Shown one piece after another: positions 37 through 61,658 of a stretch of 64,000 nt of DNA. This DNA comes from a virus. The stretch's first letter is position 1. Each line of letters opens with the position of its first letter. The position numbers and the translations under genes are program-made. The DNA lies in IMG/VR virus record IMGVR_UViG_3300031539_000008, positions 1-64,000 of that record. The stretch is one strand, 5' to 3'. Under the pieces are notes generated by a model. The model was not told the DNA's origin and did no database searches. It was given only the letters and a program-made list of their open reading frames with translations.

Positions 37-819
37 TCAAAGGACGCTTGCGCCGTTGACCTTGAAATCGAGGATCTTCTTGCCAGATTTGGTGACGTTG
101 CCCGAGTCACCTGACACCAACAGGATGGCCGGAGTGATGGCGCCGGCCGGAAGTCCCCCGTCGCCGGTGAACACGTCGCGGAGCACTGCGCCAGGATTTG
201 CGGCGATCAGGTCGGTCCACTTGTAGCTGTTCTCCAGCGTGCCAGGGCCAACGGTCACGTTCGGCAGAACGCCGCCTGGGCCTGGCCCCGCTCCCGAGCC
301 GATGACGATGACGTTCTGTGTCGCCCCGCTCCACCCGTACGTCAGCACGTTGCTGCCGTTGTTGACGTAGGTGCCGATGCTGGCGGTGATCGCTCCCGGA
401 AGGGAATCATCGTTGGTGACTAACACCCTGATGTCTCCGGCCCCTAGCGGATCGAAGTCCACAATCAGGTTGATGTACGGCGTCTGCACGCTCGGGCCGC
501 CTGGCGGCAGGAAGAACGGTCCGCCTGGGCCGACCACGTTTTCCCAGACGTACTCCAGCGACAAGAGCGACGCGATAGGGAGTCCGTTGAATCCAAAAAC
601 GCCAGCGATCGACTTGTTGCCAGTGCCGCCTCCCGTGAAGGAGCCAGCCGCGTTTACGCGCGACCCGGTTCTCAGCACGATGCTGCCGTCGTCGTACCCG
701 CCGTCCACGTTGGCCGCGTTGACGGAAAAGTCGGCGGTGTTACCGCCCAAGCCTCCACCTCCGCCTCCCCCTGCTGCGTGTTGCTTCCATGATGCTTGGC
801 TTCCTTGTACTCGTGACAT
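37..819 (-). CDS. Putative virion spike/decoration protein with N-terminal RVQG...WK motif
   Basis: MSRVQGSQASWKQH, Gly linker, then beta-rich domain; motif shared with 832-1767, 20534-21055, 59822-60781. Confidence 0.55.
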   Translation of the reverse strand: MSRVQGSQASWKQHAAGGGGGGGLGGNTADFSVNAANVDGGYDDGSIVLRTGSRVNAAGSFTGGGTGNKSIAGVFGFNGLPIASLLSLEYVWENVVGPGGPFFLPPGGPSVQTPYINLIVDFDPLGAGDIRVLVTNDDSLPGAITASIGTYVNNGSNVLTYGWSGATQNVIVIGSGAGPGPGGVLPNVTVGPGTLENSYKWTDLIAANPGAVLRDVFTGDGGLPAGAITPAILLVSGDSGNVTKSGKKILDFKVNGASVL

Positions 820-831
820 GGGTTTCTCTCC

Positions 832-1767
832 TTACGGGACCAGATCGCCCTGGATGGTTTTTTGGGCCACGGTGACGCCGGCCGGGTTGAAGGTTTTTTG
901 CCACCAGTTTGTGTAGGAGTCGCAGTTGAAGGTGCCGGCGCCGCCCGTGTAGAGGCCGGCGAAGGACGTGAGCAGAATCCCGTTGGGGCGGATCCCGGCA
1001 AACCCGGTGCTTGCGATTGTCATGCCTGCGTTGATTCGGCACGACTGGAACAGGCTGTAGTTGTCCACGTTGATCAGCCCGTCGAACCGCGTGCGCTCCG
1101 CGACCTGGAACTGCCAGTTGATCCCGGTTAGACTGCCGCGCATTCGGCTGTGGTAGATATAGCTCTGGACGATGGCCGCCCCGGCGTCGATGGAGACCCC
1201 CGCGTCCCCGAAGATCTCGCAGATCAATCCGAGTTCGACCGAGCCGAAAGCGGCGCCGGTAAGGTCGATTTTCCCCGAGATCCTGGGTTTGGTCAGGTAC
1301 GACTCGTGGGTGGTCATGGCCTCGGTTACGGGTAGATTCGAGGCGATCACCAGGCCAGGCCGGATCCCGTCAATGTCGGGCCCCGCACCCGTCACCACGA
1401 CGTTCCGGGGAGGGCCGGAGGGCGCCCAGTCCACCCCGGCAAAGGTGCCAAGGTTCCAGGAGCCGGGGCCCGTGAGGACGATCCGGCGGCGGGAAATGTC
1501 GATGGCCAGATCCTCGTCGTAGTCTCCAGGGCTGATCTGGGCGACGAACACGTTGCGCGCGCTCGCGGAATCGACACCCTGGGGCACCGCGTCGATGAAT
1601 CCCTGGATCGTCCTGAACGGCCTCGGCGTCCCTATCGCCCCGGTCGCGTCGTTGCCGTCGTCGGGATCCACCAGGCCCACGTTGCGCTGCCCAAAGGCTC
1701 CACCTTGCCCGGGGAGGTGGTGCTTCCACTGGGAGCCTCCGCCGAATCCTTGTACTCGGTCTGTCAT
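832..1767 (-). CDS. Putative spike protein, beta-helix-like, N-terminal RVQG motif
   Basis: MTDRVQGFGGGSQWKHH; VDP..GNDATG...PFRTIQ...ISPGDYDE resembles the N-cap of right-handed beta-helix proteins. Confidence 0.6.
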   Translation of the reverse strand: MTDRVQGFGGGSQWKHHLPGQGGAFGQRNVGLVDPDDGNDATGAIGTPRPFRTIQGFIDAVPQGVDSASARNVFVAQISPGDYDEDLAIDISRRRIVLTGPGSWNLGTFAGVDWAPSGPPRNVVVTGAGPDIDGIRPGLVIASNLPVTEAMTTHESYLTKPRISGKIDLTGAAFGSVELGLICEIFGDAGVSIDAGAAIVQSYIYHSRMRGSLTGINWQFQVAERTRFDGLINVDNYSLFQSCRINAGMTIASTGFAGIRPNGILLTSFAGLYTGGAGTFNCDSYTNWWQKTFNPAGVTVAQKTIQGDLVP

Positions 1768-1776
1768 AGTCGTCTC

Positions 1777-2418
1777 CTACGCCTGCGCCTTCGCGCGGTC
1801 GATCCAGTCCCTGGCGTTCTTCCACACCCGCTGGCTGCTGCCGGTGTCGATATGAATGTTGCTGGCCGAGCCTGGTGAGCCGTAGACCCCCAGGCCCATG
1901 CGAATCCGAGTGCCTGACCGAATCCACAGGTCGGCAGCGATCAGCGCCTGCTTGTTGGCCATGCCAGAGGGGGCCACCATGTCCAGAGCCTCGAAAAACT
2001 GATGGCGTGATCCTTCCTCGCCGCCGACTGCCTCATTGTAATCGGCGGGCCTGTAGGCACTGGTGACCGTAATCGGACCCTTCAGCGCATTCCGGATCGG
2101 CTGAAACCCGTACACGATCGTGGCCGCCATCCTGGGCCAATACGACTTGGGCGGGATGGCGTGGTAGCCGTTGGTCTTGCGCATGACCGTCACTTCGGCC
2201 GCGTCTATCAGGTCCAGCTTGACGCCATAGGACCGAAACATCGCGTCCATCTGGGAGAGCAAAGTCTCCAACTCAGGGTCGCCTCGCTGACCAACGTGGA
2301 TGGGCTCAGGAGGGGTCTGGTCGCTCCACGGTCCGACAGGAGCAGCTCCACCGCCACGTCTGCCACCGAACGCCAGCGCGGCGAGGGGCAGAAGGATCAG
2401 GATGACGGGGAAGGCCAC
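1777..2418 (-). CDS. Peptidase M15 family (D-Ala-D-Ala carboxypeptidase-like endolysin) with N-terminal membrane anchor
   Basis: VTSAYR..YN.AVGG...SRH...ALD and IHIDT zinc motifs; hydrophobic N-terminus. Confidence 0.85.
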   Translation of the reverse strand: MAFPVILILLPLAALAFGGRRGGGAAPVGPWSDQTPPEPIHVGQRGDPELETLLSQMDAMFRSYGVKLDLIDAAEVTVMRKTNGYHAIPPKSYWPRMAATIVYGFQPIRNALKGPITVTSAYRPADYNEAVGGEEGSRHQFFEALDMVAPSGMANKQALIAADLWIRSGTRIRMGLGVYGSPGSASNIHIDTGSSQRVWKNARDWIDRAKAQA

Positions 2419-2529
2419 GACGAGACGATACCATAGCGCCCTCTCGCCAGCGCCGGTTGCTACACGACCCGTCCGACTTGATGGAATGGACGACCGGGGT
2501 GACGAAAGGGCAGCGGTATCGTACCGCGG

Positions 2530-3675
2530 CTAGGACGCCATGTACTTCTTGCTCTTGGTTGCCCCGTGGGCGACCACGAGCTTGGCGTCTACGAGGCGTG
2601 CCAGGCTCTTGCGGAGCTGGTTCGCGTTCACGCCACGGATCAGCGGGGCGATGTCACGCGAGGGGGTCCAGTCGTTCTTGGCCTTGAGCAAGGCGAGGAC
2701 GTGTTCATCCAGCGCGCCAGTGCCCGACGGCGCGGCGCCCTCGGCAGCACGCTGTGGAGCCTTGCGCTTCGCCGTCGGCTTGGCCTTGGGCTCCGGCTTG
2801 GGTGGGGGCGCCGCCGCCTTCGGCTTCGCTGCTGCCTTCTTCTTGGCCTTCGCTGGCTTGCGCTTGCGAGGTGATGGGGGCGGGCGGAAATCCCGACCGT
2901 TCGGCGGAAAGCCACCGGGCGCGTCGAAGGTCACCGTCTCCTCCTCTTCTTCCTCTTCATCGGACGCATCGCGTCCTAGCTGATACCCGCCGATGAATTC
3001 CTCCAGCATTGGCATCGCTGATTCGACGAGTTCCTCCACGGTCATGTGCTTGATCTGGGAGTAGATGGAAAACAAAACTGCCGGCCCAACGACCCGCAGC
3101 AGGGATGGTGGTTCTTCGTGTAGCATTCCGTCCATGGCAGTCCGTATCCTGCGCGGGGGATCTTCCAGTGTCAAGATGCTCCTCGGCGGAGTGATTACGG
3201 CCCCCAGTGAACTCCAAGCGCGCCGAAACCGCGCCACGTCACTCCCGTAATAGATTACCGCCTGGTCGTAGCGATTCCCCTTCTCGGGCACGCCGTCGTA
3301 CAAGAACGCCACCCGAGTCTCCAGGAAGCAGATGGCGGAAGCCTGCCCCCAGACGTAGCGGTGCCAGTACCGAGAGCCCGACTGCACGTTCACGATGGCG
3401 AGCGTCTCGGCCAGCCGGTAGCGCCAGTGAAGGGCCGCCCGCATCAGCCACATGGCCGGCTCGGAGTAGGGGCAGTTCAGCCAGACTCGTCCGCGCCATG
3501 GCAGGACCAGGCCGTCCTGGCCGCGTCTGATGTCGTAGTTCCGATGGGCGAGCGTCAGTCCGCTCTGGTCGTGGCACGGGTCCAGGTCGGCCAGACCTCC
3601 GAAGGTCCTGGCCATCCGCTTGGCGATGGGTATGGGGGTGCAGTAGCGGTCACGATCACGCTCGTTCTCTGGCAT
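2530..3675 (-). CDS. Phage-type N6-adenine DNA methyltransferase fused to a basic linker and C-terminal winged helix
   Basis: YCTP, DLDPC, DGL..PW.GRVWLNCPYS motifs; C-terminal wHTH-like segment; start reassigned to MPENE at 3675. Confidence 0.75.
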   Translation of the reverse strand: MPENERDRDRYCTPIPIAKRMARTFGGLADLDPCHDQSGLTLAHRNYDIRRGQDGLVLPWRGRVWLNCPYSEPAMWLMRAALHWRYRLAETLAIVNVQSGSRYWHRYVWGQASAICFLETRVAFLYDGVPEKGNRYDQAVIYYGSDVARFRRAWSSLGAVITPPRSILTLEDPPRRIRTAMDGMLHEEPPSLLRVVGPAVLFSIYSQIKHMTVEELVESAMPMLEEFIGGYQLGRDASDEEEEEEETVTFDAPGGFPPNGRDFRPPPSPRKRKPAKAKKKAAAKPKAAAPPPKPEPKAKPTAKRKAPQRAAEGAAPSGTGALDEHVLALLKAKNDWTPSRDIAPLIRGVNANQLRKSLARLVDAKLVVAHGATKSKKYMAS

Positions 3676-3745
3676 TCCGTTTCGTTCCGCCGCGGATGGT
3701 ACAGGGCGGAAGATCTGCGCGCAACCGCCGTGATAGGCTCGACGC

Positions 3746-5458
3746 ATGCCCAAGGTCAGCCTGGACACCGTGTTCGACGGAGTGAAACCGTTTGCCGAGT
3801 TCGCTGTAACGAGCGATTTCGAGTCTGACTTGCCAACTGAGGATACGTTTGCTGCCGCCAACGTGTCCGCTCTCTACAACATCACGCAGTACGAGCTGTC
3901 GGGCCTGAGTTTCAGCAACTGGGCTGACCTCTCGGTGCGATCCCTCTATAACATCGGAAGCTCCTTCGGCATAGAAGCGTACCAGATGGAGTCAGTGGGT
4001 GATTTTGCCAATCAGCTCCTCACGCTATGGCGCCAGCCCCCTGGAACTACGGGCACGGATATAATTGAAGGGACGCTCATCTCGGCACTAGATCTGTCGA
4101 TGTCAGCGATTGGCCAAATCCCAATCGTTGGATGGGTCGTCCAAATCGCCTACGAGCTGGCGATGATGATCTACGACGCCGTCAAGATGTTCAAGGACTC
4201 AAAGAAAGATGTCCCCATCAAGGCGCTGGCCTACAGCTCTGGACGCGACAACGACATGGTGAAGCGGGCCTTGAAGTTCACTAACGCGGTGGACTGGACC
4301 GAGGTGTTCTTACCGGCCACGTCTCCTTCATCGTTCAAGAGCAAGTCGATTTCCTTCGGAAATGACGACGACGGCGTGAATCTCTTGGGCTATCTTGTTA
4401 TGCCGGATCAGCACGAAATCCTCGGCGGGCTCGGAGTTCTCCCGGGACTTCCAAAAGTATTCGACAACTTTCAGCTCCCGCATTGGTACAAGGAGAGCAA
4501 GACGCCTCTGCCCGGAGAGAGCCCGTCTGGTTGGCCAGGCACTTCCTCGGGTCAGGACACTCCATTTTGCAGGGTTGGCTGGTACTCAGGCAACAAGCAC
4601 ATCCAGGCCAATCTCTGCAAGAACATCGGAGAGTTCCAGCCGACCATGCAGCAGTTCGGCTACAACCTGTGGAGCATGGTGCGGACGAATGGCGCCAATG
4701 CCTTCAAGATCGCACAGAACTATACCGCCGGGCACTGGGAAGACTATTTCGGAGCCCTGGTCGAGTACATCGAGAATCAGGCGGCAAACAGCGGAGACAA
4801 CAACGCGAGACAGCGCGCCTACGACACGGGGATGTCTTCCTCTGTCGGGTGGTACAACCCCTACACGGGTGACTACTACGCCTTCGGCGAGATTGGAAAC
4901 GTCCCTGGATTCGCCAAGTACCTACAAGATGAAGGGGACCGGAACGGAGCATTCATCAAGAACCCGCTGCGAGCCGGAGGGGCTCCCCCGGAGAACACTT
5001 ATCTGGTGACCTATGGAGCGCTGGTCAAGTTCTTGCTCAACGGGCAGCTTCGCGCCTGCTACCAGAACTTTCTCAAGACCATTACTGTCGCGTACGTCAA
5101 CGAGTCGTTTCCGGCCATCGGCGGCCCCGTCGTTGCCCCCAGTTTCAAGCAGCGGTGGTTCGACAACCGCAAGCTCCTCTTGAAATCCTCGGCGGTCCAT
5201 GACGTGGAGCTGGACTTGATCCCCGACAACGAGTACGCGGCTGCGGTCTCCCAGGCGCAGAAGCTCGGTGGCTTCCAGATCACTGCCGCGCCCATCCCTG
5301 GGATCATCGGGGACATCGCCCCTCCGCCTGACTACCCTGAGTACCCCCACCCTCCTCCGCTTGTTCCGCCGGGACGCGGCCGTGGGGGGAAAGGCGCTGG
5401 AGCGGTGCTCGCCATCGCTGCCATCGCCGGGCTCATCCTGCTCGGTAGGCGTAGGTAG
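3746..5458 (+). CDS. Hypothetical 570-aa protein with C-terminal transmembrane anchor (probable virion membrane protein)
   Basis: Long ORF; Pro-rich linker, then AVLAIAAIAGLILLGRRR. Confidence 0.7.
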   Translation: MPKVSLDTVFDGVKPFAEFAVTSDFESDLPTEDTFAAANVSALYNITQYELSGLSFSNWADLSVRSLYNIGSSFGIEAYQMESVGDFANQLLTLWRQPPGTTGTDIIEGTLISALDLSMSAIGQIPIVGWVVQIAYELAMMIYDAVKMFKDSKKDVPIKALAYSSGRDNDMVKRALKFTNAVDWTEVFLPATSPSSFKSKSISFGNDDDGVNLLGYLVMPDQHEILGGLGVLPGLPKVFDNFQLPHWYKESKTPLPGESPSGWPGTSSGQDTPFCRVGWYSGNKHIQANLCKNIGEFQPTMQQFGYNLWSMVRTNGANAFKIAQNYTAGHWEDYFGALVEYIENQAANSGDNNARQRAYDTGMSSSVGWYNPYTGDYYAFGEIGNVPGFAKYLQDEGDRNGAFIKNPLRAGGAPPENTYLVTYGALVKFLLNGQLRACYQNFLKTITVAYVNESFPAIGGPVVAPSFKQRWFDNRKLLLKSSAVHDVELDLIPDNEYAAAVSQAQKLGGFQITAAPIPGIIGDIAPPPDYPEYPHPPPLVPPGRGRGGKGAGAVLAIAAIAGLILLGRRR

Positions 5459-5482
5459 GCTCGGTGCTAGAATGCCACCTGG

Positions 5483-6154: not shown

Positions 6155-6156
6155 TC

Positions 6157-7648: not shown

Positions 7649-7825
7649 CCAACCGCTTCCTCGACCCTCATCGGACGGAAGCTGCCGCTGTGGTCCCGAC
7701 AAATCACCTCGACCTTCCCCGCGCAGACGCATAGCTCAACATGGCCTCCGCGCGGGATCGAGAAGACAGCCGCCCCCTTGGGCAGCCACCCTGTGACCTG
7801 GAAGACGGAACCGTCGTACTGGACC

Positions 7826-8329: not shown

Positions 8330-8374
8330 GCGCGGATTCTACCTGCCACCTCGGCGGTATGCTACAAGCGCGTC

Positions 8375-12825: not shown

Positions 12826-13949
12826 CTGAGCCCGAGTCGCCTGCGGAGAGCTGAGCGGGCTCGCTTGTGCGGGTTCTGCCCCGGTCCTCCGCCCGCCCGC
12901 TTCTTGGCCTCCTCCAGCGCCTTGATGGCCACGTCCATCTTCTTGCTCTCTTCGGCCAGCAGCTCCGCCTCCGCCTTGAGGTCCTCCATCGCCTCCTTTT
13001 GCTCCGGAGGGGACATCGTCATCAGCTTCTCGGGCGTGACGCTGACATCGGCACCGAGGCGCTCGTGGATGTCCTTTTGTAGCTTGGTGCGAGCCTTGGT
13101 CAGCGCGTCAGCCACGAGTTGGCGGTCGGCGAACCCGCCAACTACCTCCATGATCTTCGCAGCCGACATCTTCTCCATGTCTGCCAGGCGGACCAGCTCG
13201 CGGTTCTTCTCGGACAAGCTGTCCATGGCCGCCGCGACTGCGCGAGCGATACGGCGGGCACCGAGGCTGTACCCTGCCGTGCCCGTGGCGATTCCAGGAC
13301 TAATGCCAGCGATCTCCTCTTGAATCTTCGCGGTCGGCCTGACCGACTTGGCAAAACGGCCAAGGCGACGCGACCACTGCTTGCAGTTGTTGGTCACAAT
13401 CCTGTACAGCCAGGTGTAGAACTTCGATTTCCCTTGGAAGGAGCTGATCTTTTCGAGCGCGGTGAGGAAGGCGTTTTGCGTCAGATCCTTGGCATTCTGC
13501 TGGTCACCGATGGACCATCCTTTTCGTCCTGCACGCACGCAGTTGAGGGCGATTTGGTAGACCCTGTCGTAGTAGAGGGAGTAGAGCGCGCCAAATGCCT
13601 CCTGGTTGCCTGCCTGAGTTTGACTGACCAGCTCGACGATGGCCTCTTCATCCTCGCGGTCTGGCACTTTGGCCTTGGGATTCGTCCAGAGAATCGGGAC
13701 CGCCAGCATCTCCCGATCCGATCCCATGTCAGCGAGCACTCTGGACTGAAGCTGCGACGCCAATCCCACCGCCTCGTCGAGTAGGTGCACGTCTCCAGAA
13801 TACTGAGCATGCTCAGCAGCCGCGACCGCGTGCTCCAGGGCGTGAAGGCCAGCAGCCGGCGCGCGTAGGCGACTGAGCTTTCTGGCCGACTTGAGGTAGC
13901 TCTTGGCGACGTGCGCATGCACGGGCTGCGTCGGGTTGGTCCGAGCCAT
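12822..13949 (-). CDS. ECF-type sigma-70 factor with N-terminal helical module and C-terminal tag
   Basis: GNQEAFGALY..YYDRVY, DLTQNAF, SFQGKSKFYTWLYRIVTN (region 2); LSEKNRELV...MSAAKI (region 4); ends QNPHKRARSALRRRLGLS. Confidence 0.85.
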   Translation of the reverse strand: MARTNPTQPVHAHVAKSYLKSARKLSRLRAPAAGLHALEHAVAAAEHAQYSGDVHLLDEAVGLASQLQSRVLADMGSDREMLAVPILWTNPKAKVPDREDEEAIVELVSQTQAGNQEAFGALYSLYYDRVYQIALNCVRAGRKGWSIGDQQNAKDLTQNAFLTALEKISSFQGKSKFYTWLYRIVTNNCKQWSRRLGRFAKSVRPTAKIQEEIAGISPGIATGTAGYSLGARRIARAVAAAMDSLSEKNRELVRLADMEKMSAAKIMEVVGGFADRQLVADALTKARTKLQKDIHERLGADVSVTPEKLMTMSPPEQKEAMEDLKAEAELLAEESKKMDVAIKALEEAKKRAGGGPGQNPHKRARSALRRRLGLS

Positions 13950-19069: not shown

Positions 19070-20185
19070 CTAGGCGACGCGCGCCAGGTCCACCTTGAGT
19101 TCCGCGACGCCGACGGTTGGAGCCGCGGTGACGGTAGTGACGCGCGCGAGGAGGGCGGTGGCCCCGGCGTAGATGGAGGCCTTGCTGGACTGGTAGGTCC
19201 CCGTGGCCGCCAGGTCGTTCTCCGTCGCGGCGAATACGGCGTCGAGATCGGCCGCGACACCGATCTGCAAGGTCACCCCATTGTCGAACGCCGTGGTCAC
19301 CAGCACGACGCCGCCCTGGACAAAGGAGTTGGCGGGCATCGTAGCGCCGAGCGCGAGGTTGGTGGAACCCGGGGTACCCGGGAAGTCCGCGAAGGTGACC
19401 TGTAGGTAGCGGTACAGGACGGCGACGCCGGCGGCCAGCTTGCCCTCGGTGATGGTGCTGTTGGCGATCTTCGCTCCGGTGATGCCGAGCGCGACCACCG
19501 ACACCAGCACGTCGGTCCCCGAAAGCGACGCCACCAAGACGGTGGACTCGCCCAAGATTCCGCGAACCGTGGGAACCGGCGCCGCACCGCTCTCCAGCAC
19601 GGTGATGCCAGTGACGCCAGCAGCCGTGGCGATGCTGGTGACTCCGGCTGAAACCGAGGCAAACTGCAAGAACGTCAGCGGGTCGGTACCCACGATGGCC
19701 GGGTCACCCGTCTCCACGTAGGCTTGGTCAGCCTGCGTCGTGCCCTCGCTCACGAACATGGCGGCGTTGGTCGCATCCGATCCAGCGGCCATGTCTGTGG
19801 CACGCACCAGCGGCGTCGCGGCCGTGTCGAACACGTAGATGCCGTTCTCGATGGCCGCCGTCTGGTTCTTGAGCAGTACCCGGTCGCCGAGGACCAGCGC
19901 CACGCCGTCCAAGCTCGCGCCTGGCGCCGCGATCGTGACGTTCGCGGTCGAGGCAGCGCGGACGTACTCCTTCCAAGAGAGTCCCAGGATCGCAGCATCC
20001 AACTGGGACTTGATGACGAAATCGTTGGCCGCGACCGCTGCGGCGCCCGACATATTCACATCTGCCGCGTTCGCGTTGTCGCGCGCACGAAGCTGCGTGG
20101 CCGATGCTCCGACGATGGTGGCGTTGCCCTTGCCGAAGTTGACGACGGACGCGAGGCCCGCGAGGGTGAAGTTGTATGCTGCCAT
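19070..20185 (-). CDS. Phage fibre/decoration protein
   Basis: WKEYVRAASTANV...LDGV.L..GDRVLLKNQT...ENGIYV domain common in phage fibre proteins. Confidence 0.8.
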   Translation of the reverse strand: MAAYNFTLAGLASVVNFGKGNATIVGASATQLRARDNANAADVNMSGAAAVAANDFVIKSQLDAAILGLSWKEYVRAASTANVTIAAPGASLDGVALVLGDRVLLKNQTAAIENGIYVFDTAATPLVRATDMAAGSDATNAAMFVSEGTTQADQAYVETGDPAIVGTDPLTFLQFASVSAGVTSIATAAGVTGITVLESGAAPVPTVRGILGESTVLVASLSGTDVLVSVVALGITGAKIANSTITEGKLAAGVAVLYRYLQVTFADFPGTPGSTNLALGATMPANSFVQGGVVLVTTAFDNGVTLQIGVAADLDAVFAATENDLAATGTYQSSKASIYAGATALLARVTTVTAAPTVGVAELKVDLARVA

Positions 20186-20533: not shown

Positions 20534-21055
20534 CTAAAAGGCTCTGATGATTGTGTCCACCACGCGGTAGTTGACCGTCGTGGCCACACCCCCGCCCGAT
20601 CCGGTCAGCCGCACAATGACCGAACCGGCAGAAAGCAGAACGGTCACGTCGATGTCGGTCAGCGGCGCATCGCTGTCGATGATGAGCGTGGAAATATCGA
20701 CCCCGGTACCCGACACAGCGATGTCAAGCCGAAATGAGGAAGACTCCCCATTCGCCTTGGAGATGTTCATTTCGACCGCGACCTGCCCCAGGGTGTCGGG
20801 CCCCACGTTCAGGTCCTGAGTGGCGCTGTCCAGGAAGCTCGCGGTCTGGAGCGGCGGGAGGGCCCCGCCGGGCACATCCACGTTGGCCTGGCCGGGCGGT
20901 CCAGGGGTGACCACGACGCCGGGTCCGGTGAAGTTCAGGGCTGTGGCCGCAGGTACGACAACGACGCCGTCGTCCTGCACCTCAATGTCGCCGCCGCCAC
21001 CGTCGGGGACGTGGTTTCTCCAGGCGGATGGGTTGCCCTGAACGCGTTGGACCAC
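20534..21055 (-). CDS. Putative structural protein with N-terminal RVQG...W motif
   Basis: MVQRVQGNPSAWRNH; VQDDG...ALNFTGPGV fibre-type strand motif. Confidence 0.6.
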   Translation of the reverse strand: MVQRVQGNPSAWRNHVPDGGGGDIEVQDDGVVVVPAATALNFTGPGVVVTPGPPGQANVDVPGGALPPLQTASFLDSATQDLNVGPDTLGQVAVEMNISKANGESSSFRLDIAVSGTGVDISTLIIDSDAPLTDIDVTVLLSAGSVIVRLTGSGGGVATTVNYRVVDTIIRAF

Positions 21056-24382: not shown

Positions 24383-24528
24383 CCGTCACCATCACCGTGT
24401 AAGCACTTGATATTATTGAGGAAATCGGTAGAAATGCGTGCGTAAAGGCACGTTCAACGTCGCCGTTAGAGTCCGAATTCGTACGTCTAAGGTGGGTTGA
24501 CGGGCTCCCTCACCGGCTTACTCTTGGA

Positions 24529-24555
24529 TGTCCGATAAGTGCGAGTTGTCGGTCA
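24529..24555. promoter_or_regulatory. Putative recombinase core site (lox-like imperfect inverted repeat)
   Basis: TGTCCGATAA-GTGCGAG-TTGTCGGTCA, arms 8/10 complementary, 7-bp spacer, just upstream of the probable recombinase start. Confidence 0.45.
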
Positions 24556-24587
24556 TCGTGGGGCGCAAGCGAAACAACAACACGGCC

Positions 24588-25859
24588 ATGGAGCTGTTGC
24601 CGAATGCGGCTGCGGCACTGCGCACCGAGGCACTGAAACGTCACCTGGAGCGTGGCGATGATCTGGCCAGCTACGCGCGGTCGGATCGGACGCAACAAGC
24701 CTACGAGTCGGACGTGCGCCAATGGCTCGACTACGCGAAGCGCCATGGCATTCCGCCGTACCCGATCTCTCCTTCCGCCCTGGTGGCGTACCTCGGGTAC
24801 ATGGACGAGCGCGACTACAAGGTGGCGACCGTCAAGCGCCGCCTGGCCGGTCTGGTGCAGTGGCACCAGAGCCGTGGCGATGCGCTTCCGATGGGCCCTA
24901 AGCTAAAGGAGCGCCTCAAGGGGCTCCGGCGGAAAAAGGGGGTGGCCCAGACTGCGAAGCGGGCATTCACCCTGGAGCAGATTGCCGAGATGCTCTTGCT
25001 GATGGGGGATAGCGATGTGGAGTGCCGCGACAAGGCCATGCTGCTCGTGGGGTTTCAGAGTTCTGCGCGCCGAAGCGAGCTGGCCGAGCTGACCTGGGAA
25101 GACGTAGAGGAGCACCAGACCTTCTGGCTTCTTCACATCCGCAGGTCGAAGACCGACCAAGAGGGCCTGGGTCAGGATGTTGTCCTACCGCAGGAGGGCG
25201 GCTTCAGTGCGCTTGCCGCCCTGAGAGACTGGCGAGAGCGACAGGGAACCGGCACTGGACCAGTCTTCGGCATCACAGATCGGACGATAGCCAGGCGCGC
25301 GCAGCACTGCGCGAAGATGATAGGCCTAGACCCCGGCGTCTACGGGGCTCACTCCTTGCGCAGCGGTTTCGCCACCGAGGCCGACCGCAAGGGCGCATCT
25401 GTGAGGGAGATTCAGGGGCAGACGCACCATAAGGATGCAAGGATGGTCGACAGGTACATTCAGAAGCGTGCGCAGGCCGAAAACAAGGCCGCGCGTCTGG
25501 TAGCCGAAGGGCTGAGCGAATTGACGCCGAAGAAGCCGCGAGGGTACGAGGTTGACCTCGGCGACTATCGCGTCTTGCTCGTCGACTCAAGCTCAGGAGA
25601 GCCCGTCGCGTGGGGCTTCCCGCTGCTCAAGTCGCTCGGCGAGGAACGCTTCTCCGCCCTCGGTCAACTGGGCGAGTTGGCGTGCCTGGATCACGTCAAC
25701 GGCGGCAAGTACGGCTTCGTGGTGCGCCGGCTGAACCATGCCGAGGCGATTCGCAAATACGGAGAAGTCACCGGGCGGGAGACTGGTCCGCGCGGCGGCT
25801 GGCGCTCGATCACGTACGGAAAGACACAGTTCCTGAGCAAGCTGGACGGGGACCAATGA
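24588..25859 (+). CDS. Tyrosine recombinase, Cre-like, with C-terminal extension
   Basis: SAM-like N-domain (T..AYESD...W), RDKAMLL..F.S.ARRSEL, RSKTDQ.G, GAHSLRSGF, H...M..RY. Confidence 0.92.
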   Translation: MELLPNAAAALRTEALKRHLERGDDLASYARSDRTQQAYESDVRQWLDYAKRHGIPPYPISPSALVAYLGYMDERDYKVATVKRRLAGLVQWHQSRGDALPMGPKLKERLKGLRRKKGVAQTAKRAFTLEQIAEMLLLMGDSDVECRDKAMLLVGFQSSARRSELAELTWEDVEEHQTFWLLHIRRSKTDQEGLGQDVVLPQEGGFSALAALRDWRERQGTGTGPVFGITDRTIARRAQHCAKMIGLDPGVYGAHSLRSGFATEADRKGASVREIQGQTHHKDARMVDRYIQKRAQAENKAARLVAEGLSELTPKKPRGYEVDLGDYRVLLVDSSSGEPVAWGFPLLKSLGEERFSALGQLGELACLDHVNGGKYGFVVRRLNHAEAIRKYGEVTGRETGPRGGWRSITYGKTQFLSKLDGDQ

Positions 25860-44260: not shown

Positions 44261-44512
44261 CTAGAATTTCGAGCAAAAGGGCGGCAGGTAGTCTCCGAGG
44301 TAGTGATTGCAACATTCGCAATTGAACTGGTTGCCCTGGTCGTCGACAGCGCACCGCTTGTAGTCTCCCTCTCCCGAACACGAGCGTGTGCTACCTGGGC
44401 TAGAGGTGATACGACCGCGACCACGCCGACGCGCGGGCTTCTGGTAGGCGGCACGGGTGGAGGCCGCAGATCCGCGTTTGCTTCTACTGGATGCCATGGA
44501 TGGGTTGTTCAT
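44261..44512 (-). CDS. Leader + Cys-rich core peptide (6 Cys)
   Basis: First 32 aa identical to 44598-44846. Confidence 0.7.
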   Translation of the reverse strand: MNNPSMASSRSKRGSAASTRAAYQKPARRRGRGRITSSPGSTRSCSGEGDYKRCAVDDQGNQFNCECCNHYLGDYLPPFCSKF

Positions 44513-44874
44513 CTTCGTTTCCTTTCAGTCCCTGACTCGGTTGCTAAGTGAAAGCCGCGATGGAGGGCCATCACCTGGACGACCCTCTCCACCCACCTCA
44601 CATATTCACGCACCAAGGAGGCAGGTATCCGCCCAACACGCGAGTGCAACACTGACCCTTGCCAGAATGCCAGTAGTAATCACTCCCGTGACTCTTCTTG
44701 CAGTCTGCGTCCTTGCCCAGATTCGATCCTCCAGGGACGCCGAGTGTCGCTCGTCCGCGCCTGCGCGCGGGCTTCTGGTAGGCGGCACGGGTGGAGGCCG
44801 CAGATCCTCGTTTGCTTCTACTGGATGCCATGGATGGGTTGTTCATCTTCGTTTCCTTTCAGTTCCTGACTCGG
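44431..44874. repeat. About 110-bp direct repeat (44431-44540 / 44765-44874), 2 mismatches
   Basis: Covers RBS region and leader of two peptide genes, offset 334. Confidence 0.95.
44598..44846 (-). CDS. Leader + Cys-rich core peptide (4 Cys)
   Basis: Shared leader; ends CC...LGGYLPPWC. Confidence 0.7.
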   Translation of the reverse strand: MNNPSMASSRSKRGSAASTRAAYQKPARRRGRATLGVPGGSNLGKDADCKKSHGSDYYWHSGKGQCCTRVLGGYLPPWCVNM

Positions 44875-52891: not shown

Positions 52892-52900
52892 CTTCGTTTC

Positions 52901-53664: not shown

Positions 53665-53665
53665 C

Positions 53666-54097: not shown

Positions 54098-54102
54098 TTT
54101 TC

Positions 54103-54876: not shown

Positions 54877-54880
54877 TTTT

Positions 54881-55219: not shown

Positions 55220-55261
55220 GGGAACTCCTGGTCCCGATGCTACCGCGGCGGAGCTGTACCC

Positions 55262-56218: not shown

Positions 56219-56219
56219 T

Positions 56220-56921
56220 TCACATCCTGGTCAGAACACTGGGCAGGCGTCCACGGGATTTGGCGGCTTTCTTGCCGCCGTTGACCTGTGGCTTGGGAGC
56301 ATAGTAGCGCTGTTCCCACTGCTTTGCAGCGCGCTTGGCCGCACTTATGGCGGTCTGCTCGCTGCGGTAGGGCTTGGAGGACGTGGCGGCGAGCTTGCTC
56401 TTTCGGTTGTCTTGCACCCAGAAGTGCCAGACGGTTCCGTCTCCGTCGACAGTGATGGAGAAGTCTTGCTCCGCCTCTGGATTGCGTCGTCTTCCAAGTC
56501 CACGCACAGACCAGTAGATCGGGTATCGGGCTCGTGAGTCGGCCCTGATGCGTCCACAGACTCGTGCAGCCCGGACAGAATCTCCGTGCCGCTTCGTTTG
56601 GTCGTCCACACACTGGTACCAGGGATAGGTGCCTGGCCCGCGTCGAGCCTTGTCTACCTTGCGACGTGCGGGGATGGTTTTCTGCTTCCTGGCCAGCTCG
56701 CCCGCAGCGCGCTGCAAGGTCTCTGACATGGCGAAGTCACCCGCGTTTTCCGCCTCGTAGATCAGGTCCGAAAGCCGGTCATGGTAGGCGACATAGCTCT
56801 CACCTTTCTTTCTGCGCGGGACGGCGGGACCACGTGGAATCAGCGCGGTTATTCGGCGCCTGGCAACCTTCTTGGTCGCCTTCTTTCTGCCCTTGCTAAC
56901 CTTTTTCTTGGATCGGGCCAC
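56220..56921 (-). CDS. Basic multi-module protein (RRNP; degenerate tag SVLTRM)
   Basis: RGLGRRRNP; beta3-alpha module. Confidence 0.6.
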   Translation of the reverse strand: MARSKKKVSKGRKKATKKVARRRITALIPRGPAVPRRKKGESYVAYHDRLSDLIYEAENAGDFAMSETLQRAAGELARKQKTIPARRKVDKARRGPGTYPWYQCVDDQTKRHGDSVRAARVCGRIRADSRARYPIYWSVRGLGRRRNPEAEQDFSITVDGDGTVWHFWVQDNRKSKLAATSSKPYRSEQTAISAAKRAAKQWEQRYYAPKPQVNGGKKAAKSRGRLPSVLTRM

Positions 56922-56922
56922 G

Positions 56923-57546
56923 CTACCCCTTCGGCCACTGTGATGGTGGAAGGGATAACTTCTCCTCCGCATCGAGAGACGCCCAGTTGGTACGATCGAA
57001 CTCCTTGGCCATCTTGCTCAGCCAGGCGATGGCCGAACTCAGCGTCTTGGAGTCTCTTCGGGCCAGATATTCTCCCTCCGCCAAGATGATCGCCTCGTAG
57101 TGCTTGCTTCCCCACCGGTAGACGATCAGCTTGAACGGCCCCGTTGAGGCAGCGTAGTCCTGCTCGTAGACGTTCTCTGGGCTACCGTGGCGATCGGCCA
57201 AGCTACGGTAGTAGTCGTACGCGGCCCCCTGAACCCCCTTGGACCCAGTGCCCCACATCAGGCGGTGGATGGATTCCTCGGTCTCCGTGCCTTCTGGATC
57301 GAGATGCTCGTTGCCTTGCACAAGGTCGTCAGCCCACTCGGTGTTGCCGACGTACAGGTAGTACCTACGATCCCAGGGGAACAGATGCTCTCCGGGCCCG
57401 GAAGTTTGCGTCGGCTCTCCGCGCTCGATCTGGTACTTCCAGTCTGGGAAGCCAGGCACCCTGAATGAGCTGCGGTCCTTCTTCTGGCGAAGACCAATCG
57501 CCATCGCACCAACGATGGCCATGCCCCAGATCAGTGGAAGTGGCAT
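56923..57546 (-). CDS. N-terminally anchored membrane protein
   Basis: MPLPLIWGMAIVGAMAIGLRQKK. Confidence 0.6.
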   Translation of the reverse strand: MPLPLIWGMAIVGAMAIGLRQKKDRSSFRVPGFPDWKYQIERGEPTQTSGPGEHLFPWDRRYYLYVGNTEWADDLVQGNEHLDPEGTETEESIHRLMWGTGSKGVQGAAYDYYRSLADRHGSPENVYEQDYAASTGPFKLIVYRWGSKHYEAIILAEGEYLARRDSKTLSSAIAWLSKMAKEFDRTNWASLDAEEKLSLPPSQWPKG

Positions 57547-57902
57547 CAGTCCTCCATGTCCTCGACCATCTCCTCGATGACCGTACGCTTGACAACGGGC
57601 GGCTTGGGTGCCAACGCCGGAACCGCTATCGTTCCGGCACCAGTCGTCGCGTTGAGCATGAGGCGCTGCGCAGCCTCCCCGGTCACAACGACCCCTTCGG
57701 CCTCGTTCTTCTTCTTGAACATGCGCTCCAGGACGCGGATGGCGAAGAATCCACCCGTCGCCGTGGCGGCGCCCATGAGGGCTCCGGCCCAGAAGGAGCT
57801 GCGGTCTCGCGATGTCTTGGCTGCGGTCTCACCTACACCGCGCGCCTGTCTCCGTTCTTCACGGCGCTTGCGCTGTTCTGGAGTGGAGTAGAGCGATGCC
57901 AT
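57546..57902 (-). CDS. Small membrane protein with GVG motif
   Basis: RGVGE; FWAGALMGAATATGGFFAI. Confidence 0.6.
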   Translation of the reverse strand: MASLYSTPEQRKRREERRQARGVGETAAKTSRDRSSFWAGALMGAATATGGFFAIRVLERMFKKKNEAEGVVVTGEAAQRLMLNATTGAGTIAVPALAPKPPVVKRTVIEEMVEDMED

Positions 57903-57911
57903 GGTCCTCGC

Positions 57912-58112
57912 CTATTCTGGGTCCCGCCCGAGTAGACCTCGGCCGATTTCTCGGCGCTCTTGGATGCGGTTGATCATGTCCCTGCCGACACCTGATGGGC
58001 TCGCCAGGCGCTTCTGGATCTCCTCAGTGGATAGCCCTTGGTCAACCCACTTGAGGATCTGGTTCACGAGTTCCAGTGCAGGATACACGATGGGGGCGAG
58101 TGGGGTGGTCAT
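57912..58112 (-). CDS. Small hypothetical protein
   Basis: ATGA-coupled ORF. Confidence 0.5.
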   Translation of the reverse strand: MTTPLAPIVYPALELVNQILKWVDQGLSTEEIQKRLASPSGVGRDMINRIQERREIGRGLLGRDPE

Positions 58113-59215
58113 GCGGCTTCCTTTGCAGTCTTTGCGAGGCAGAACGCCAGGTTGGTCTCGATGCGCGGTCGCTGCAAGGCAGGGAGGCCATCGTTGGCCA
58201 GGAGTGCCTCGTTGGCCTGCCGTGCTTCCGCGTACCTACCGACCCAATATGCGGAAATCGCGTAGGCGTCCAACGCCATCCAGGTGTAGGCGGCATCCTC
58301 GACGTACAGGAGGTCTCGCTTCGGATAGGGGAGGTCGCGTGCAGCGCAGGCGTACACGTGTGCCATCGCGTATGCCTTGCTTTGTCGACACAGGGCAGAG
58401 AGTGCGACGAGCGGTTCTGACCGCTGCGGATTAGAGCGGTAAGCGGACAGGTATGAGGCGGCGACCACTTCATCCGTCGCTCCCGACCGGGCCTGGAGGA
58501 CGCCGATCTGGTAGAGCGAGAACCACACCTCCTCGTACCATCCTACCATTTCGGCGCGCCTCCGATACCAGACGATGGCGCTTTCCAAGTCGCCGATGTC
58601 ACGGTAGCTCTGCGCGAGATAGAACGTCGCCCGACTGTTTAGCGGATTTTCCTCAAGCTCGGCATGAAAATTGGAGATGTCGGCCTGATACTTCCTTTTT
58701 GGATCCGCGCTCCGTCGGCGCGCTCCGTCGGACGGATGGCTGATTCTGATGCCGTCGATGTTTTCGCTACGAAATCCCTCGCGGCAGTTCAGCGCGCTGT
58801 GGCTTTTCGACCGGTAGAACCATGGCTTATCCGCTCGGATGAGGGTCGGCATCCTCCATGAACTTCCGCTCATGGTGATCCTGGCGAAGTACGCGTCCTC
58901 TGAGAGGTCAGGCAGCGCGAAGCCATCGTCGATCTCCCAGACGTAGGCGGCGTCTGAGAACAGCAGAAAGTCAGCGTGCGGTCTGGCCAGCTCCAGGGCC
59001 TCAGTACGGTTGGACCCGAAGTCGCGCCATGGGCGCTCGTGCAGCTCGCCGGGAATGTGCCCCAGGATGGCCTGGATCTTCTCCTTCGTGTCGTCCGTGG
59101 AGCCCGTGTCCACGATGCACCAGGAGTCGATGAGGTGCTTGATGGGCCCAAGGCAGCGCTCGATGACAGCGCCCTCGTCCTTCACGATCATGTTTAGGCA
59201 GATCGTCGTCCTCAT
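58109..59215 (-). CDS. GT2 glycosyltransferase with TPR repeats
   Basis: ICLNMIVKDE, VDTGSTD, DFGSNR; TPR FYLAQSYRD; DxD appears as DAA. Confidence 0.9.
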   Translation of the reverse strand: MRTTICLNMIVKDEGAVIERCLGPIKHLIDSWCIVDTGSTDDTKEKIQAILGHIPGELHERPWRDFGSNRTEALELARPHADFLLFSDAAYVWEIDDGFALPDLSEDAYFARITMSGSSWRMPTLIRADKPWFYRSKSHSALNCREGFRSENIDGIRISHPSDGARRRSADPKRKYQADISNFHAELEENPLNSRATFYLAQSYRDIGDLESAIVWYRRRAEMVGWYEEVWFSLYQIGVLQARSGATDEVVAASYLSAYRSNPQRSEPLVALSALCRQSKAYAMAHVYACAARDLPYPKRDLLYVEDAAYTWMALDAYAISAYWVGRYAEARQANEALLANDGLPALQRPRIETNLAFCLAKTAKEAA

Positions 59216-59814
59216 GTCCTGCCCACTCCAATCCAGTATCCGTACTGGGTCTGCAACCGTCTCACCCAAATGACCGTGAGTTCCTGGAAGCATGGTTGGT
59301 ACCACCTGGCTGCGTCTGAATACCCAGAGAAATAGCGCACGTGTGCGGGGTCGTCAAAGTTGGGGACCGAGAAGATAACCAGCTTCCCACTTGGGATTCG
59401 ACGGATGAACCCTTGGTCGTCGTCGATGTGCTCAAATACCTCGGTGGCGATCACGGTATCGAAATCCCGGTCGAATACTTCACCGTCGCGCATGTCTGCG
59501 ACGGCAAACGCCTCGGCTGGAATCTTTCCGGCATTCTTCCGACGTGCGATTTCGATTGCCTTCGGGGAAAAGTCGATTCCCGCGTAGGCGATCTTCGGCA
59601 AGTGTTGATTCAGGCAGCCCGCGAGCTGCCCAGGCCCGCATCCTATCTCGTAGATGGAGCTGGCGTTGTTAGCCGCCAACACATCCACAATTCGCATCCA
59701 TACTGGGAGGTAGGGCGAGCCCTGCCACGGGTGCGAGTACCAGGAACTCTGTTCGTACATCCGGTCGTAGTACGAGTCGTCGAGCGCCTGGCTAGCCGTC
59801 CCTGCCTTCGGCAT
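59212..59814 (-). CDS. Class I SAM-dependent methyltransferase
   Basis: EIGCGPG, GIDFS, EVFEHI, SVPN. Confidence 0.9.
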   Translation of the reverse strand: MPKAGTASQALDDSYYDRMYEQSSWYSHPWQGSPYLPVWMRIVDVLAANNASSIYEIGCGPGQLAGCLNQHLPKIAYAGIDFSPKAIEIARRKNAGKIPAEAFAVADMRDGEVFDRDFDTVIATEVFEHIDDDQGFIRRIPSGKLVIFSVPNFDDPAHVRYFSGYSDAARWYQPCFQELTVIWVRRLQTQYGYWIGVGRT

Positions 59815-59821
59815 CGGTGAG

Positions 59822-60781
59822 CTACAACTCCCAGAGACCGGTTGCGCGCCACTGAAGGGTTGACCCTGTGATTCCGGATCCGACGCCTGGACGAACCTGG
59901 AGGCCGAGCAGATCTCCAACCCCGAAAATCGCGGAGATAGGTGAGAATGCGAACAACACGGGCACGCCCTCAACCATGGGGAAGGGTCCGCTCGTGGAGA
60001 TCACCAGTAGCGGAGGAACGGCCACCGGCAAGTGCGCGAACGCACCTGGCTGCACAGGGGCCACGTTTGGTGGGACGAGATCGAGCAGGTCAATGCTGAC
60101 TCCGCTGAAGCTCCCGGCACCAGGGAGATTTTGCGCGAAGGACATGATGACGGCAACAAGGCGTCCAGCGCGATCGGGGATCCACTCCCAGATCGGCCCT
60201 GGCGGCGCAGTGGGCAGCGCTCCTGGGACCCCCAAGTTCCAGTCCGTGCCGAAGGTGAGGCGGAACGGGTCGGGGATTCCTTCTCCGGCCGCGTCGTTGG
60301 AGTTGGTGTGATGCGTGCGGTGCTCTTGGATAATCGGCCCGGTTGGCCCTGTTGGTCCGACACCGCCAGTGCTGCCAGCAGGCCCTGTTGGTCCGACACC
60401 GCCAGTGCTGCCAGCAGGCCCTGTTGGTCCGACACCGCCAGTGCTGCCAGCAGGCCCTGTTGGGCCGACACCGCCAGTGCTGCCAGCAGGCCCTGTTGGG
60501 CCGGTGACCCCTGTTCCGGTTGGTCCCGTTGGTCCCGCGACGCCGGTGCTGCCAGCAGGCCCTGTTGGGCCGGTTGGTCCGACGGGACCAGGACCTGTTG
60601 GTCCGGTCGGACCAACGCTGCCTGTTCCGCCGGTTCCGCCGGTCGGGCCTGTTGGTCCTGTTCCGCCGGTGACGCCCATGGGTCCGGTTGGTCCCTCTGG
60701 TCCGGTTGGTCCGGTTCCGCCGGTATCAACCCACTGCTTCCACGGAGGGCCACCACCAAATCCTTTGACTCTTTGTACCAT
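59822..60781 (-). CDS. Collagen-like (GPT) spike protein with N-terminal RVKG...WK motif
   Basis: About 43 G-x-y triplets rich in Thr; C-terminal beta domain. Confidence 0.9.
60345..60503. repeat. 36-bp tandem repeat x4+ within the collagen gene
   Basis: ggccctgttggtccgacaccgccagtgctgccagca. Confidence 0.95.
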
Positions 60782-60805
60782 CGTCCTTGCGCCTCTCGTG
60801 GCGAG

Positions 60806-61210
60806 CTAGGGAACACCCTTGACTCGCGCGAAATACTGCCCCGCTTCCGGCGGCAGGTCGTCGACTATTTTCTGAACCTCACGCATCAGCTCGGCGAAAT
60901 CCGGGTCCTTCCCAGTGGCGCGTGCCAGCCAGTACGTCCGCAGCAAAGCCACCGCGGACTGGACCGCTTCGGCCACCTTCGCGTCCGCGTCGTAGGTTGA
61001 GCCAAAACACTCCTCCATTTCGGGGGTCTTAGGCTCGTATCGGCTCTCGCACCTTTCCGCTTCAGATCGGTAGTAGCCGTCCCACGTCGTTTCGGCCGCT
61101 CGCAAGCCCTCTTCCGTGTAGACCACGGCCTTGTTGGCGGAATGAGCGCATCCCATGGTCAGCAAGATGCTGACCATGGCGCACTGTAACCGTGTGGTGC
61201 ACCAACTCAT
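60806..61210 (-). CDS. Putative lipoprotein
   Basis: ILLTMGC lipobox-like; helical body. Confidence 0.55.
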   Translation of the reverse strand: MSWCTTRLQCAMVSILLTMGCAHSANKAVVYTEEGLRAAETTWDGYYRSEAERCESRYEPKTPEMEECFGSTYDADAKVAEAVQSAVALLRTYWLARATGKDPDFAELMREVQKIVDDLPPEAGQYFARVKGVP

Positions 61211-61226
61211 GGCAGCGCGGACCGGA

Positions 61227-61409
61227 TTAGGACGATGGACAGTTCAGCTTCCACTGCTGACCGCCGCCCCAACCTTGGAGCCGGCTTTCGCCCGACTGCG
61301 TGTGCATCTTCCACTGGCGACCCGCGCCCCATCCGGCGGTGGGCACCGTGGCGAGCGGCGTGCACAGCACCTTGTATGTGCTTGATCCGAAACCTTTTGC
61401 GATTGGCAT
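61227..61409 (-). CDS. Small protein with three G(F/W)G...(W/Y)K repeats
   Basis: KGFGSSTYK, AGWGAGRQWK, RLQGWGGGQQWK. Confidence 0.65.
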   Translation of the reverse strand: MPIAKGFGSSTYKVLCTPLATVPTAGWGAGRQWKMHTQSGESRLQGWGGGQQWKLNCPSS

Positions 61410-61460
61410 TTGGGAGTTCTCCTCGCTTGAGTCTACGCGGCCAGGCGCCGCGGGTACAGG

Positions 61461-61658
61461 CTAGTCCTGACCTCCGCAAAAGAGCTTCCACTGCGGTCCG
61501 CCGCCGATTCCCTGAAGTCGGTTACTTGGTCCGCCGCCGATGTGAAACATCTTCCATGGCCTACCCGCGCCCCACCCTCGGGCTCTCACGCCGAGGCTGT
61601 CGTCGCAGTACGTCTTCCAGGTTCCGGGTCCCCATCCTTGTACGATGATCAGCGCCAT
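61461..61658 (-). CDS. Small protein with three G(W/I)G...WK repeats (paralog of 61227-61409)
   Basis: VQGWGPGTWK, RGWGAGRPWK, RLQGIGGGPQWK. Confidence 0.65.
   Translation of the reverse strand: MALIIVQGWGPGTWKTYCDDSLGVRARGWGAGRPWKMFHIGGGPSNRLQGIGGGPQWKLFCGGQD

Follow-up and report, generated by a model that had tools for sequence, protein, structure and literature searches.

The window, i.e., the whole stretch of DNA analyzed here, comprises 64,000 nucleotides (positions 1 to 64,000) of IMG/VR record IMGVR_UViG_3300031539_000008. The record is linear, with 102,604 bp and 141 predicted proteins, and comes from an uncultivated virus of ~100 kb; its CheckV completeness is about 71%, and the host is bacterial. 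Four genes in the window encode proteins that begin with a similar peptide of ~15 residues, hereafter the tag, and two tandem genes encode miniproteins that carry tag-like repeats (Table 1).

Table 1. Tagged genes, miniprotein genes, and their neighbors in the window
Feature	Position	Strand	Description
Tagged protein 1, 260 aa	37..819	-	Tag at residues 1-14, Gly run, family 1 body
Tagged protein 2, 311 aa	832..1767	-	Tag at residues 4-17, family 0 body, weak PHROG tail-protein match
M15 peptidase, endolysin-type	1777..2418	-	Adjoins tagged proteins 1 and 2
Gene with PHROG head-decoration, virion-structural, and tail-fiber matches	19070..20185	-	Downstream of tagged protein 3
Tagged protein 3, 173 aa, GTG start	20534..21055	-	Tag at residues 1-15, four Gly, body modeled as homotrimer
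Tagged protein 4, 319 aa	59822..60781	-	Tag at residues 1-17, collagen triple-helix repeats, C-terminal domain
Miniprotein 1, 60 aa	61227..61409	-	Three tag-like repeats, two Cys
Miniprotein 2, 65 aa	61461..61658	-	Three tag-like repeats, two Cys; tandem paralogue of miniprotein 1
Membrane-anchored protein	61696..62496	-	Immediately upstream of the miniproteins

The tag consists of a hydrophobic or basic strand, a Gly turn, and then Trp-Lys, often with His; in every case it occupies the extreme N-terminus, ahead of a Gly run. We searched protein N-termini with the pattern R-V-[QK]-G-x(4-6)-W-[KR], which matched four of the 141 predicted proteins but nothing in 2000 shuffled proteomes. A six-frame scan of all 102,604 bp with the same pattern placed the motif at the four N-termini and at five internal sites in two small ORFs; the other four matches were arginine-rich, off-frame, and due to chance. 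No additional tagged genes emerged from a looser motif scan of the record. An earlier, sequence-only reading had claimed a shared N-terminal motif on four unrelated bodies, and this holds: translation confirms the minus-strand starts at 819, 1767, 21055 (GTG), and 60781, and the bodies have no BLAST similarity to one another. The collagen body that it had assigned to the gene starting at 60781 is likewise recovered, as G-X-Y repeats of PF01391 (35.5 bits, E = 8.4e-9; Pfam cut-off 27.2).

PHROG tail-fiber or tail-protein matches, together with the endolysin neighbor, provide a structural context for the tagged genes. The gene at 19070..20185 is syntenic in two related contigs, L008 and L017. 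In relatives, a conserved module encoding membrane-anchored and jelly-roll proteins is followed directly by the array of tagged genes, and the L017 homologue of the membrane-anchored protein in Table 1 directly precedes such an array. Here, the structural module lies at genome position 61.7-73.2 kb. Lysis-type and lipoprotein-like genes are also found among the neighbors.

Triple-tag miniproteins

Both miniprotein ORFs have ribosome-binding sites and a GC3 of 0.70-0.74, as in other genes here. The start at 61658, giving 65 codons, is correct because homologues are 60-67 aa long. The family has at least 10 clusters, with all three repeats retained in the nine further clusters (60-80 aa). Between the two paralogues, 32 residues are identical, of which 13 are encoded by different codons. 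No matches to the family were found among Pfam and PDB sequences, and no triple-tag protein was seen in the loci of other tag classes, which are partial. A 12-nt repeat upstream of both genes was considered as a genome-wide signal and rejected; it is a duplication scar.

We built an HMM from the miniprotein repeats alone and searched 283 targets with it. Spike tags took the top ranks, namely residues 3-17 of protein 2 (E = 1.7e-7), an L006 homologue of protein 1 (E = 2e-7), and protein 4 (E = 9.5e-5); matches to the tags of proteins 1 (E = 1.3) and 3 (E = 0.09) were weak. By sequence, the miniprotein repeats and the spike tag are the same motif. The sequence-only reading's description of the 60- and 65-aa genes as three motif copies is upheld, and these genes are conserved. 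An AlphaFold model of the miniprotein (pLDDT 57), to be taken as a lead only, has one hairpin per repeat and three in all.

Tag classes in related contigs

We compared the locus with related metagenome contigs (L006-L009, L014-L017, L025, and L028). In each related genome, between two and nine unrelated bodies begin with one short peptide followed by a glycine run, and at least six peptide classes occur among these contigs, some with only 8-9 residues. Class A tags are found on three tandem genes in L014 and on two each in L006/L007 and L008/L009, and class C tags on five genes in L015/L016 and nine in L017; further peptides are carried by three genes in L028 and at least five in L025. Two sub-variants of class A coexist in L006, so that one site would need to take both.

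The tag is also exchanged between genomes. Homologues of protein 1 have the class A tag in L006/L014 and the class C tag in L015/L017, and the 49 homologues of protein 2 have a conserved body behind N-termini of classes A, B, C, D, and F. At least two classes are found with each of the body families to which proteins 1, 2, and 3 belong. On the tree of family-0 bodies, at least six tag changes are needed for four classes, and a single clade (SH-aLRT 100) contains tags A, B, and D. The tags mark the exact boundary where bodies are swapped. Loss of the motif in homologues would have spoken against the sequence-only reading; close homologues keep it, and distant ones carry other short peptides.

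Tags residing in the same genome have the same residues but synonymous codons that differ throughout, which indicates selection at the peptide level; between proteins 1 and 2, four tag codons are identical. IMG/VR scans with proteins 1 and 2, the miniprotein alignment, the jelly-roll alignment, and two tag DNA patterns as queries returned 0 relatives, and a scan of genome contigs matched a single 5-kb MAG contig that gives no clue to the host.

Trimer model and candidate docking site

Trimer modeling, a check proposed earlier, gave a homotrimer for protein 3: three copies scored 0.82, against 0.00 for the best of three controls. In calibration, 20 of 30 proteins solved as pairs and 1 of 23 solved as single chains attained 0.82; these counts hold only roughly for the present model, which unlike the calibration used its own 4-row alignment and three copies. 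At least 75% of the contacts agree between runs, with a partner pLDDT of 83 or higher. The interface is confident from residue 21-22 onward, past the Gly run, and the tag is not named in it. This model and the collagen repeats of protein 4 suggest that these two spikes are trimeric.

The sequence-only reading had proposed a plug-in attachment peptide for one capsid site. The portable peptide module stands, given unrelated bodies of structural type, a peptide that is conserved or replaced in homologues, and one trimer model with a free tag. The capsid or penton site stays hypothetical: in the ~71% complete record, no penton gene, double jelly-roll capsid gene, or packaging ATPase gene was found, and Pfam, PHROGs, and PDB-sequence searches recognized no terminase, portal, capsid, or tail genes among its large ORFs. 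Because the record is ~71% complete, the absence of recognized tail genes does not establish a tailless virus. A T4gp10-like branching domain had no match when ~70 proteins from the same incomplete record (~71%) were compared with the general profiles of PHROGs and Pfam.

A protein encoded at 71855-72622 of the genome has a jelly-roll C-domain. Its best Z-scores in VIA are 7.6-6.3, below 8, and include the capsid proteins of HCIV-1, PBCV-1, and P23-77; in BFVD it matches collagen-like, minor-tail, and coat proteins at low TM. Both a capsid protein and a fiber head are possible identities for it. Two beta-rich proteins searched in the ESM Atlas matched only unnamed viral clusters.

Interpretation and known docking peptides

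The tag is probably a genome-specific docking peptide for interchangeable, mostly trimeric receptor-binding proteins (RBPs), and the miniproteins may fill or bridge the docking site. The ~15-residue peptide would act as an address tag specific to its genome and, on a flexible glycine linker, would dock spikes or RBPs at a single shared position on the virion, allowing bodies to be exchanged while attachment stays unchanged. With three tag units in one chain, the miniproteins would most likely sit at such a site as bodiless caps or placeholders, or else serve as an adaptor bridging the site. It is conceivable but rather doubtful that the tag forms a beta-hairpin on a three-fold site and that the clade runs mutually exclusive peptide address codes co-evolving with their sites. 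The miniproteins would then be single-chain surrogates of a spike's three tags, which might cap vacant sites, hold sites during assembly, or pair hairpin-to-hairpin with spike tags as a hub.

Sharing of a terminal peptide might instead reflect folding. The T4 fibritin foldon is a ~27-residue beta-hairpin with Trp, three of which form a trimer, and the tag might similarly trimerize or fold chains by three beta-hairpins, for example to set the register of a collagen helix, with no docking; the miniprotein would be a free-standing version of the domain. The hairpins of the low-confidence AlphaFold model, a collagen-like tagged body that requires registration, and three repeats per miniprotein chain that mirror three chains are all compatible with such a nucleus. 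We nevertheless consider it improbable, since a nucleus need not match across unrelated proteins, where sharing risks mixed trimers, and since the confident interface of protein 3 starts beyond the tag and other tag classes are very short. The foldon itself is a C-terminal folding nucleus and no shared address. A feature of the DNA is quite unlikely as well. The shared 5' sequence would be a homology patch for cassette exchange or a product of recent gene conversion, encoding a functionless peptide, and both its position at the body-exchange boundary and the four codons identical between proteins 1 and 2 fit this; yet coresident tags keep their residues in spite of different synonymous codons, 12-15 codons is a short patch for homologous recombination, and a separate protein family retains the motif as three repeats.

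Two other addresses for the peptide seem very improbable. As a capsid-targeting sequence in the style of T4 internal proteins, it would load cargo into the procapsid and then be cleaved. A short N-terminal peptide common to unrelated proteins would suit this role, as would other shared terminal tags that the genome may have according to the sequence-only reading, but the four tags lack Glu, and hence a cleavage site of the [LI]-x-E type, and collagen-like, fiber-like, trimeric bodies with tail-fiber-type matches are atypical of internal cargo. Alternatively, the tag would send proteins to the host envelope for display or export during infection. Such a non-virion address has the nearby lysis-type and lipoprotein-like genes in its favor, but the tag resembles neither a signal peptide nor a transmembrane segment, and variable arrays of fiber-type genes beside a structural module are typical of RBPs.

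The principle of a docking peptide is already known from K1-5/SP6, Klebsiella phages, and adenovirus; the peptide itself, the exchange of tags, and the triple-tag miniprotein are new. Short docking peptides make RBPs exchangeable and are already used for re-targeting phages. The clade is a natural experiment of this kind, in which uncultivated viruses of ~100-125 kb with almost no annotated genes carry at least six classes of interchangeable peptide on the same bodies. The tag marks the set of host-recognition genes and the boundaries of their modules, and the miniprotein, being small, conserved, and testable, could show what geometry the docking site has.

Conserved N-terminal docking peptides occur in the RBP systems of K1E/K1-5/SP6 and in branched Klebsiella-phage systems (PMC6872550), and the docking peptides of such RBPs were tested experimentally (PMC13352976). 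As here, tailspikes that are otherwise unrelated start with a common peptide, 7 to ~20 residues long, which varies from one phage group to the next. Several exchangeable RBPs can thereby be carried on one virion, as would hold for the present tag. Our genomes likewise have the same extreme N-terminal peptide on at least two unrelated RBP-type bodies, and a group-specific peptide with exchanged bodies (six tag classes). Those phages, however, are tailed and dock the peptide on an adaptor protein or a T4gp10-like branching domain, whereas no such domain, adaptor, or tail was found here in the ~71% complete record; the present peptide is unrelated and shared by up to nine genes, and no triple-peptide miniprotein is described there.

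In adenovirus, the N-terminal tail of the fiber binds the penton base, also in species with two fiber genes. There, a flexible stretch carries a short N-terminal peptide that attaches a trimeric fiber, as would the tag here, and different fibers may share the tail; the present motif, however, is unrelated, the host is bacterial, and no penton base was found in the ~71% record. Spike P5 of PRD1, anchored in penton P31, is trimeric, partly collagen-like, and fixed N-terminally in a virus with membrane proteins, but its anchor is a domain rather than a 15-residue peptide. In BclA-type collagen-like proteins, a short N-terminal motif targets the Bacillus exosporium. BclA serves as an anchoring motif (PMC3850424). 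Several collagen-like trimers with variable bodies carry this N-terminal address peptide, which resembles the present arrangement, but its target is a structure of a cellular spore, its sequence is unrelated to the tag, and the N-terminus undergoes processing upon attachment.

N-terminal tags in the record

Translation reproduced the N-termini that the sequence-only reading had claimed for four minus-strand genes (tagged proteins 1 to 4). Beginning no more than four residues from the start, each carries the tag pattern R-V-[QK]-G, four to six residues, and W-[KR], usually with a His, and a glycine-rich stretch follows. Scanned in six frames, the complete record (102,604 bp, 63% GC, linear, IMG/VR; CheckV completeness 71%), whose first 64 kb are the window, gave the pattern at these four N-termini and five times inside two small ORFs, the remaining matches being four arginine-rich, off-frame chance ones. 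The N-terminal pattern was present in 4 of 141 predicted proteins and in none of 2000 shuffled proteomes, and a looser pattern yielded no extra tagged member in the record. The bodies, i.e., the parts after tag and linker, are unrelated, as had been proposed: no BLAST similarity was found among the four. In all four genes the tag codons are rich in A-ending triplets (CGA, GTA, CAA, GGA, GCA, TCA), in contrast to the GC3 of 0.70-0.91 in the called genes of the record; a possible cause is selection that keeps the mRNA weakly structured near the start.

Features of the record and of related contig loci
Feature	Position	Strand	Tag codons
Tagged protein 1	37-819	minus	775-819
Tagged protein 2	832-1767	minus	1717-1767
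Tagged protein 3 (173 aa)	20534-21055	minus	21011-21055
Integrase	24528-25859		
Tandem duplication (~337 bp)	44261-44846		
Small ORFs in the duplication (examples)	44261-44512, 44598-44846		
GT2 glycosyltransferase	58109-59305		
Tagged protein 4 (collagen-like)	59822-60781	minus	60731-60781
Lipoprotein-like gene	60806-61210		
Miniprotein 1 (60 aa)	61227-61409		
12-nt repeat, first copy	61430-61441		
Miniprotein 2 (65 aa)	61461-61658		
12-nt repeat, second copy	61693-61704		
Conserved module	genome 61.7-73.2 kb		
Five acidic proteins (window edge)	genome 64109-67820 (L001:2109-5820)	minus	
Jelly-roll protein	genome 71855-72622		
Lipoprotein-like gene, distant relative	L028:8481-8720		
P-loop kinase-like genes, related 98-kb contig	L030:10953-11468, 13070-13564		

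Tag classes on homologous bodies

The body of tagged protein 2 has 49 metagenomic homologues (31-84% identity), 31 of which were aligned. The body is conserved starting with the first post-linker residue, and the initial 12-16 residues sort into discrete classes: class A is the motif of this record, and three different short peptides make up classes B, C, and D. A few homologues carry longer N-terminal domains in place of the short peptide.

We examined 35 metagenome loci and one MAG locus, in which each genome's peptide is common to its adjacent, unrelated genes. Class A occurs on two genes in L006/L007 and likewise in L008/L009, and one of its sub-variants on three tandem genes in L014; class C is on five genes in L015/L016 and on nine in L017; another peptide is on three genes in L028, and yet another on at least five in L025. 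Overall, 12 body families and six tag classes were distinguished. Each of the three body families common to this record and its relatives carries at least two tag classes. On the tree of the protein 2 body, the distribution of four tag classes takes six or more changes, and tags A, B, and D fall inside one clade (SH-aLRT 100); tags and bodies have therefore recombined repeatedly.

In a MAFFT alignment the tags of classes A and C line up in every column, the common pattern being hydrophobic-x-V, a turn, an aromatic residue followed by Lys/Arg, and finally a run of Gly; the classes could be divergent forms of a single structural element. Two tagged-body families are combined in the metagenomic protein P0043, a natural chimera that joins a long N-terminal domain and a segment resembling the beginning of the protein 1 body to the C-terminal half of the protein 2 body.

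A family of triple-repeat miniproteins

Each miniprotein ORF has a ribosome-binding site and a GC3 in the normal range. An exhaustive search over 1.84 billion representatives returned nine further clusters (60-80 aa, E = 5e-13 to 1e-4), and no relatives of the family were found in Pfam or PDB. All members retain three units of hydrophobic-x-x-G-[WF]-G-x-G-x-x-[WY]-[KR], usually with two Cys, and unit 1 lies at the extreme N-terminus, as spike tags do. The two paralogues of this record have 32 identical residues, 13 of them with different codons. An exact 12-nt repeat lies 5′ of each gene; since the stop codon of the gene before it falls within the second copy, the repeat marks the tandem duplication that made the second miniprotein.

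The earlier claim that these repeats and the spike tags are the same motif held: an HMM built from 30 miniprotein repeat units alone, searched against 283 targets, recovered the tags, with top matches at E = 1.7e-7 to 9.5e-5. Residues 3-17 of tagged protein 2 ranked first (E = 1.7e-7), the top group also including an L006 homologue of protein 1 (E = 2e-7) and the collagen-like protein (E = 9.5e-5); the 173-aa protein (E = 0.09) and protein 1 (E = 1.3) scored lower, with the position correct in both. AlphaFold modeled one β-hairpin per repeat (pLDDT 57), a predicted fold that we take only as a lead.

Proposed docking role of the tag and its alternatives

We infer that the tagged proteins are virion parts, and their composition and matches are of fibre type. 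The collagen-like protein scored 35.5 bits against Pfam collagen (cut-off 27.2) with many PHROG tail-fibre matches, and protein 2 has a weak PHROG tail-protein match. An M15 endolysin gene adjoins two tagged genes; a third adjoins a protein with PHROG head-decoration, virion-structural, and tail-fibre matches, an arrangement with synteny in L008 and L017. The tagged array of L016/L017 is found immediately downstream of homologues of the conserved module; in this record the module codes for two β-rich proteins and for many that carry a membrane helix at the N-terminus.

On balance we favor the tag as a genome-specific docking peptide, which the flexible glycine linker would carry and which would attach interchangeable, mostly trimeric, receptor-binding proteins at one common virion site. 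Under this hypothesis the miniproteins, with three tags per chain, might occupy that site as a cap or placeholder that lacks a body, or serve as an adaptor. Reading the tag as a non-virion address sits poorly with the arrays of variable fibre-type genes beside a structural module. Were the tag a DNA homology patch, its conservation would lie in the nucleotides; co-resident tags have the same residues in different synonymous codons. It is the peptide that is conserved, and not a patch of DNA. A less favored reading makes the tag a nucleus for trimerization. Three copies of the 173-aa protein folded together scored 0.82 (best of three controls, 0.00), a mark reached by 20 of 30 proteins solved as pairs and one of 23 solved as single chains, counts that are rough for this model, which has three copies and its own 4-row alignment, unlike the calibration. 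At least 75% of contacts agree between runs, with partner pLDDT ≥ 83. The confident interface starts at residue 21-22, directly after four glycines. As the residues named there do not include the tag, it is at least not required for the modeled trimer.

A capsid-targeting signal is a further, less likely reading. The jelly-roll protein has 26 homologues and a C-domain modeled confidently as a jelly-roll. Among its top matches in VIA, all below Z = 8, are the capsid proteins of HCIV-1 (Z = 7.4), PBCV-1, and P23-77; Foldseek against PDB gave nothing significant, and the BFVD matches, at low TM, were to collagen-like and minor-tail proteins and to coat proteins of RNA viruses. Because this protein could, on its model, serve in the capsid or as the head of a fibre, docking at one capsid site and the proposed likeness to a penton stand as candidates only. 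In the ~71%-complete record we recognized no gene for a terminase, portal, HK97 capsid, A32-type ATPase, or tail, which is not evidence for a tailless virus since roughly 29% of the genome may be missing.

Adenovirus fibre tails follow the same docking principle. Docking by N-terminal peptides is established in K1E/K1-5/SP6 and in the branched RBP systems of Klebsiella phages; in all of these the conserved peptides have at least seven residues and differ between phage groups (PMC6872550), and docking has been put to experimental test (PMC13352976). Three elements are new here: the sequence of the tag, the exchange, as documented above, of six or more tag classes among orthologous bodies, and a conserved family of triple-tag miniproteins.

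Almost all of the ~70 proteins scanned from the record lack a Pfam/PHROG family; the recognizable genes, besides those tabulated, are an M15 peptidase and DnaB-like, RecE/RecT-like, and AAA ATPase genes. The five acidic proteins, which had no family matches, each have one N-terminal membrane helix and then a Gly/Lys-rich stretch, and have the look of structural paralogues anchored in a membrane. A small lipoprotein-like gene (a signal-like helix then Cys) lies just upstream of a tagged gene in this record and again in the distant relative L028; it could serve in lysis as a spanin-type gene or encode a structural lipoprotein. In L030, two paralogous small P-loop kinase-like genes stand beside a homologue of the protein 2 body. 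The ~337-bp tandem duplication yields two near-identical small ORFs per strand.
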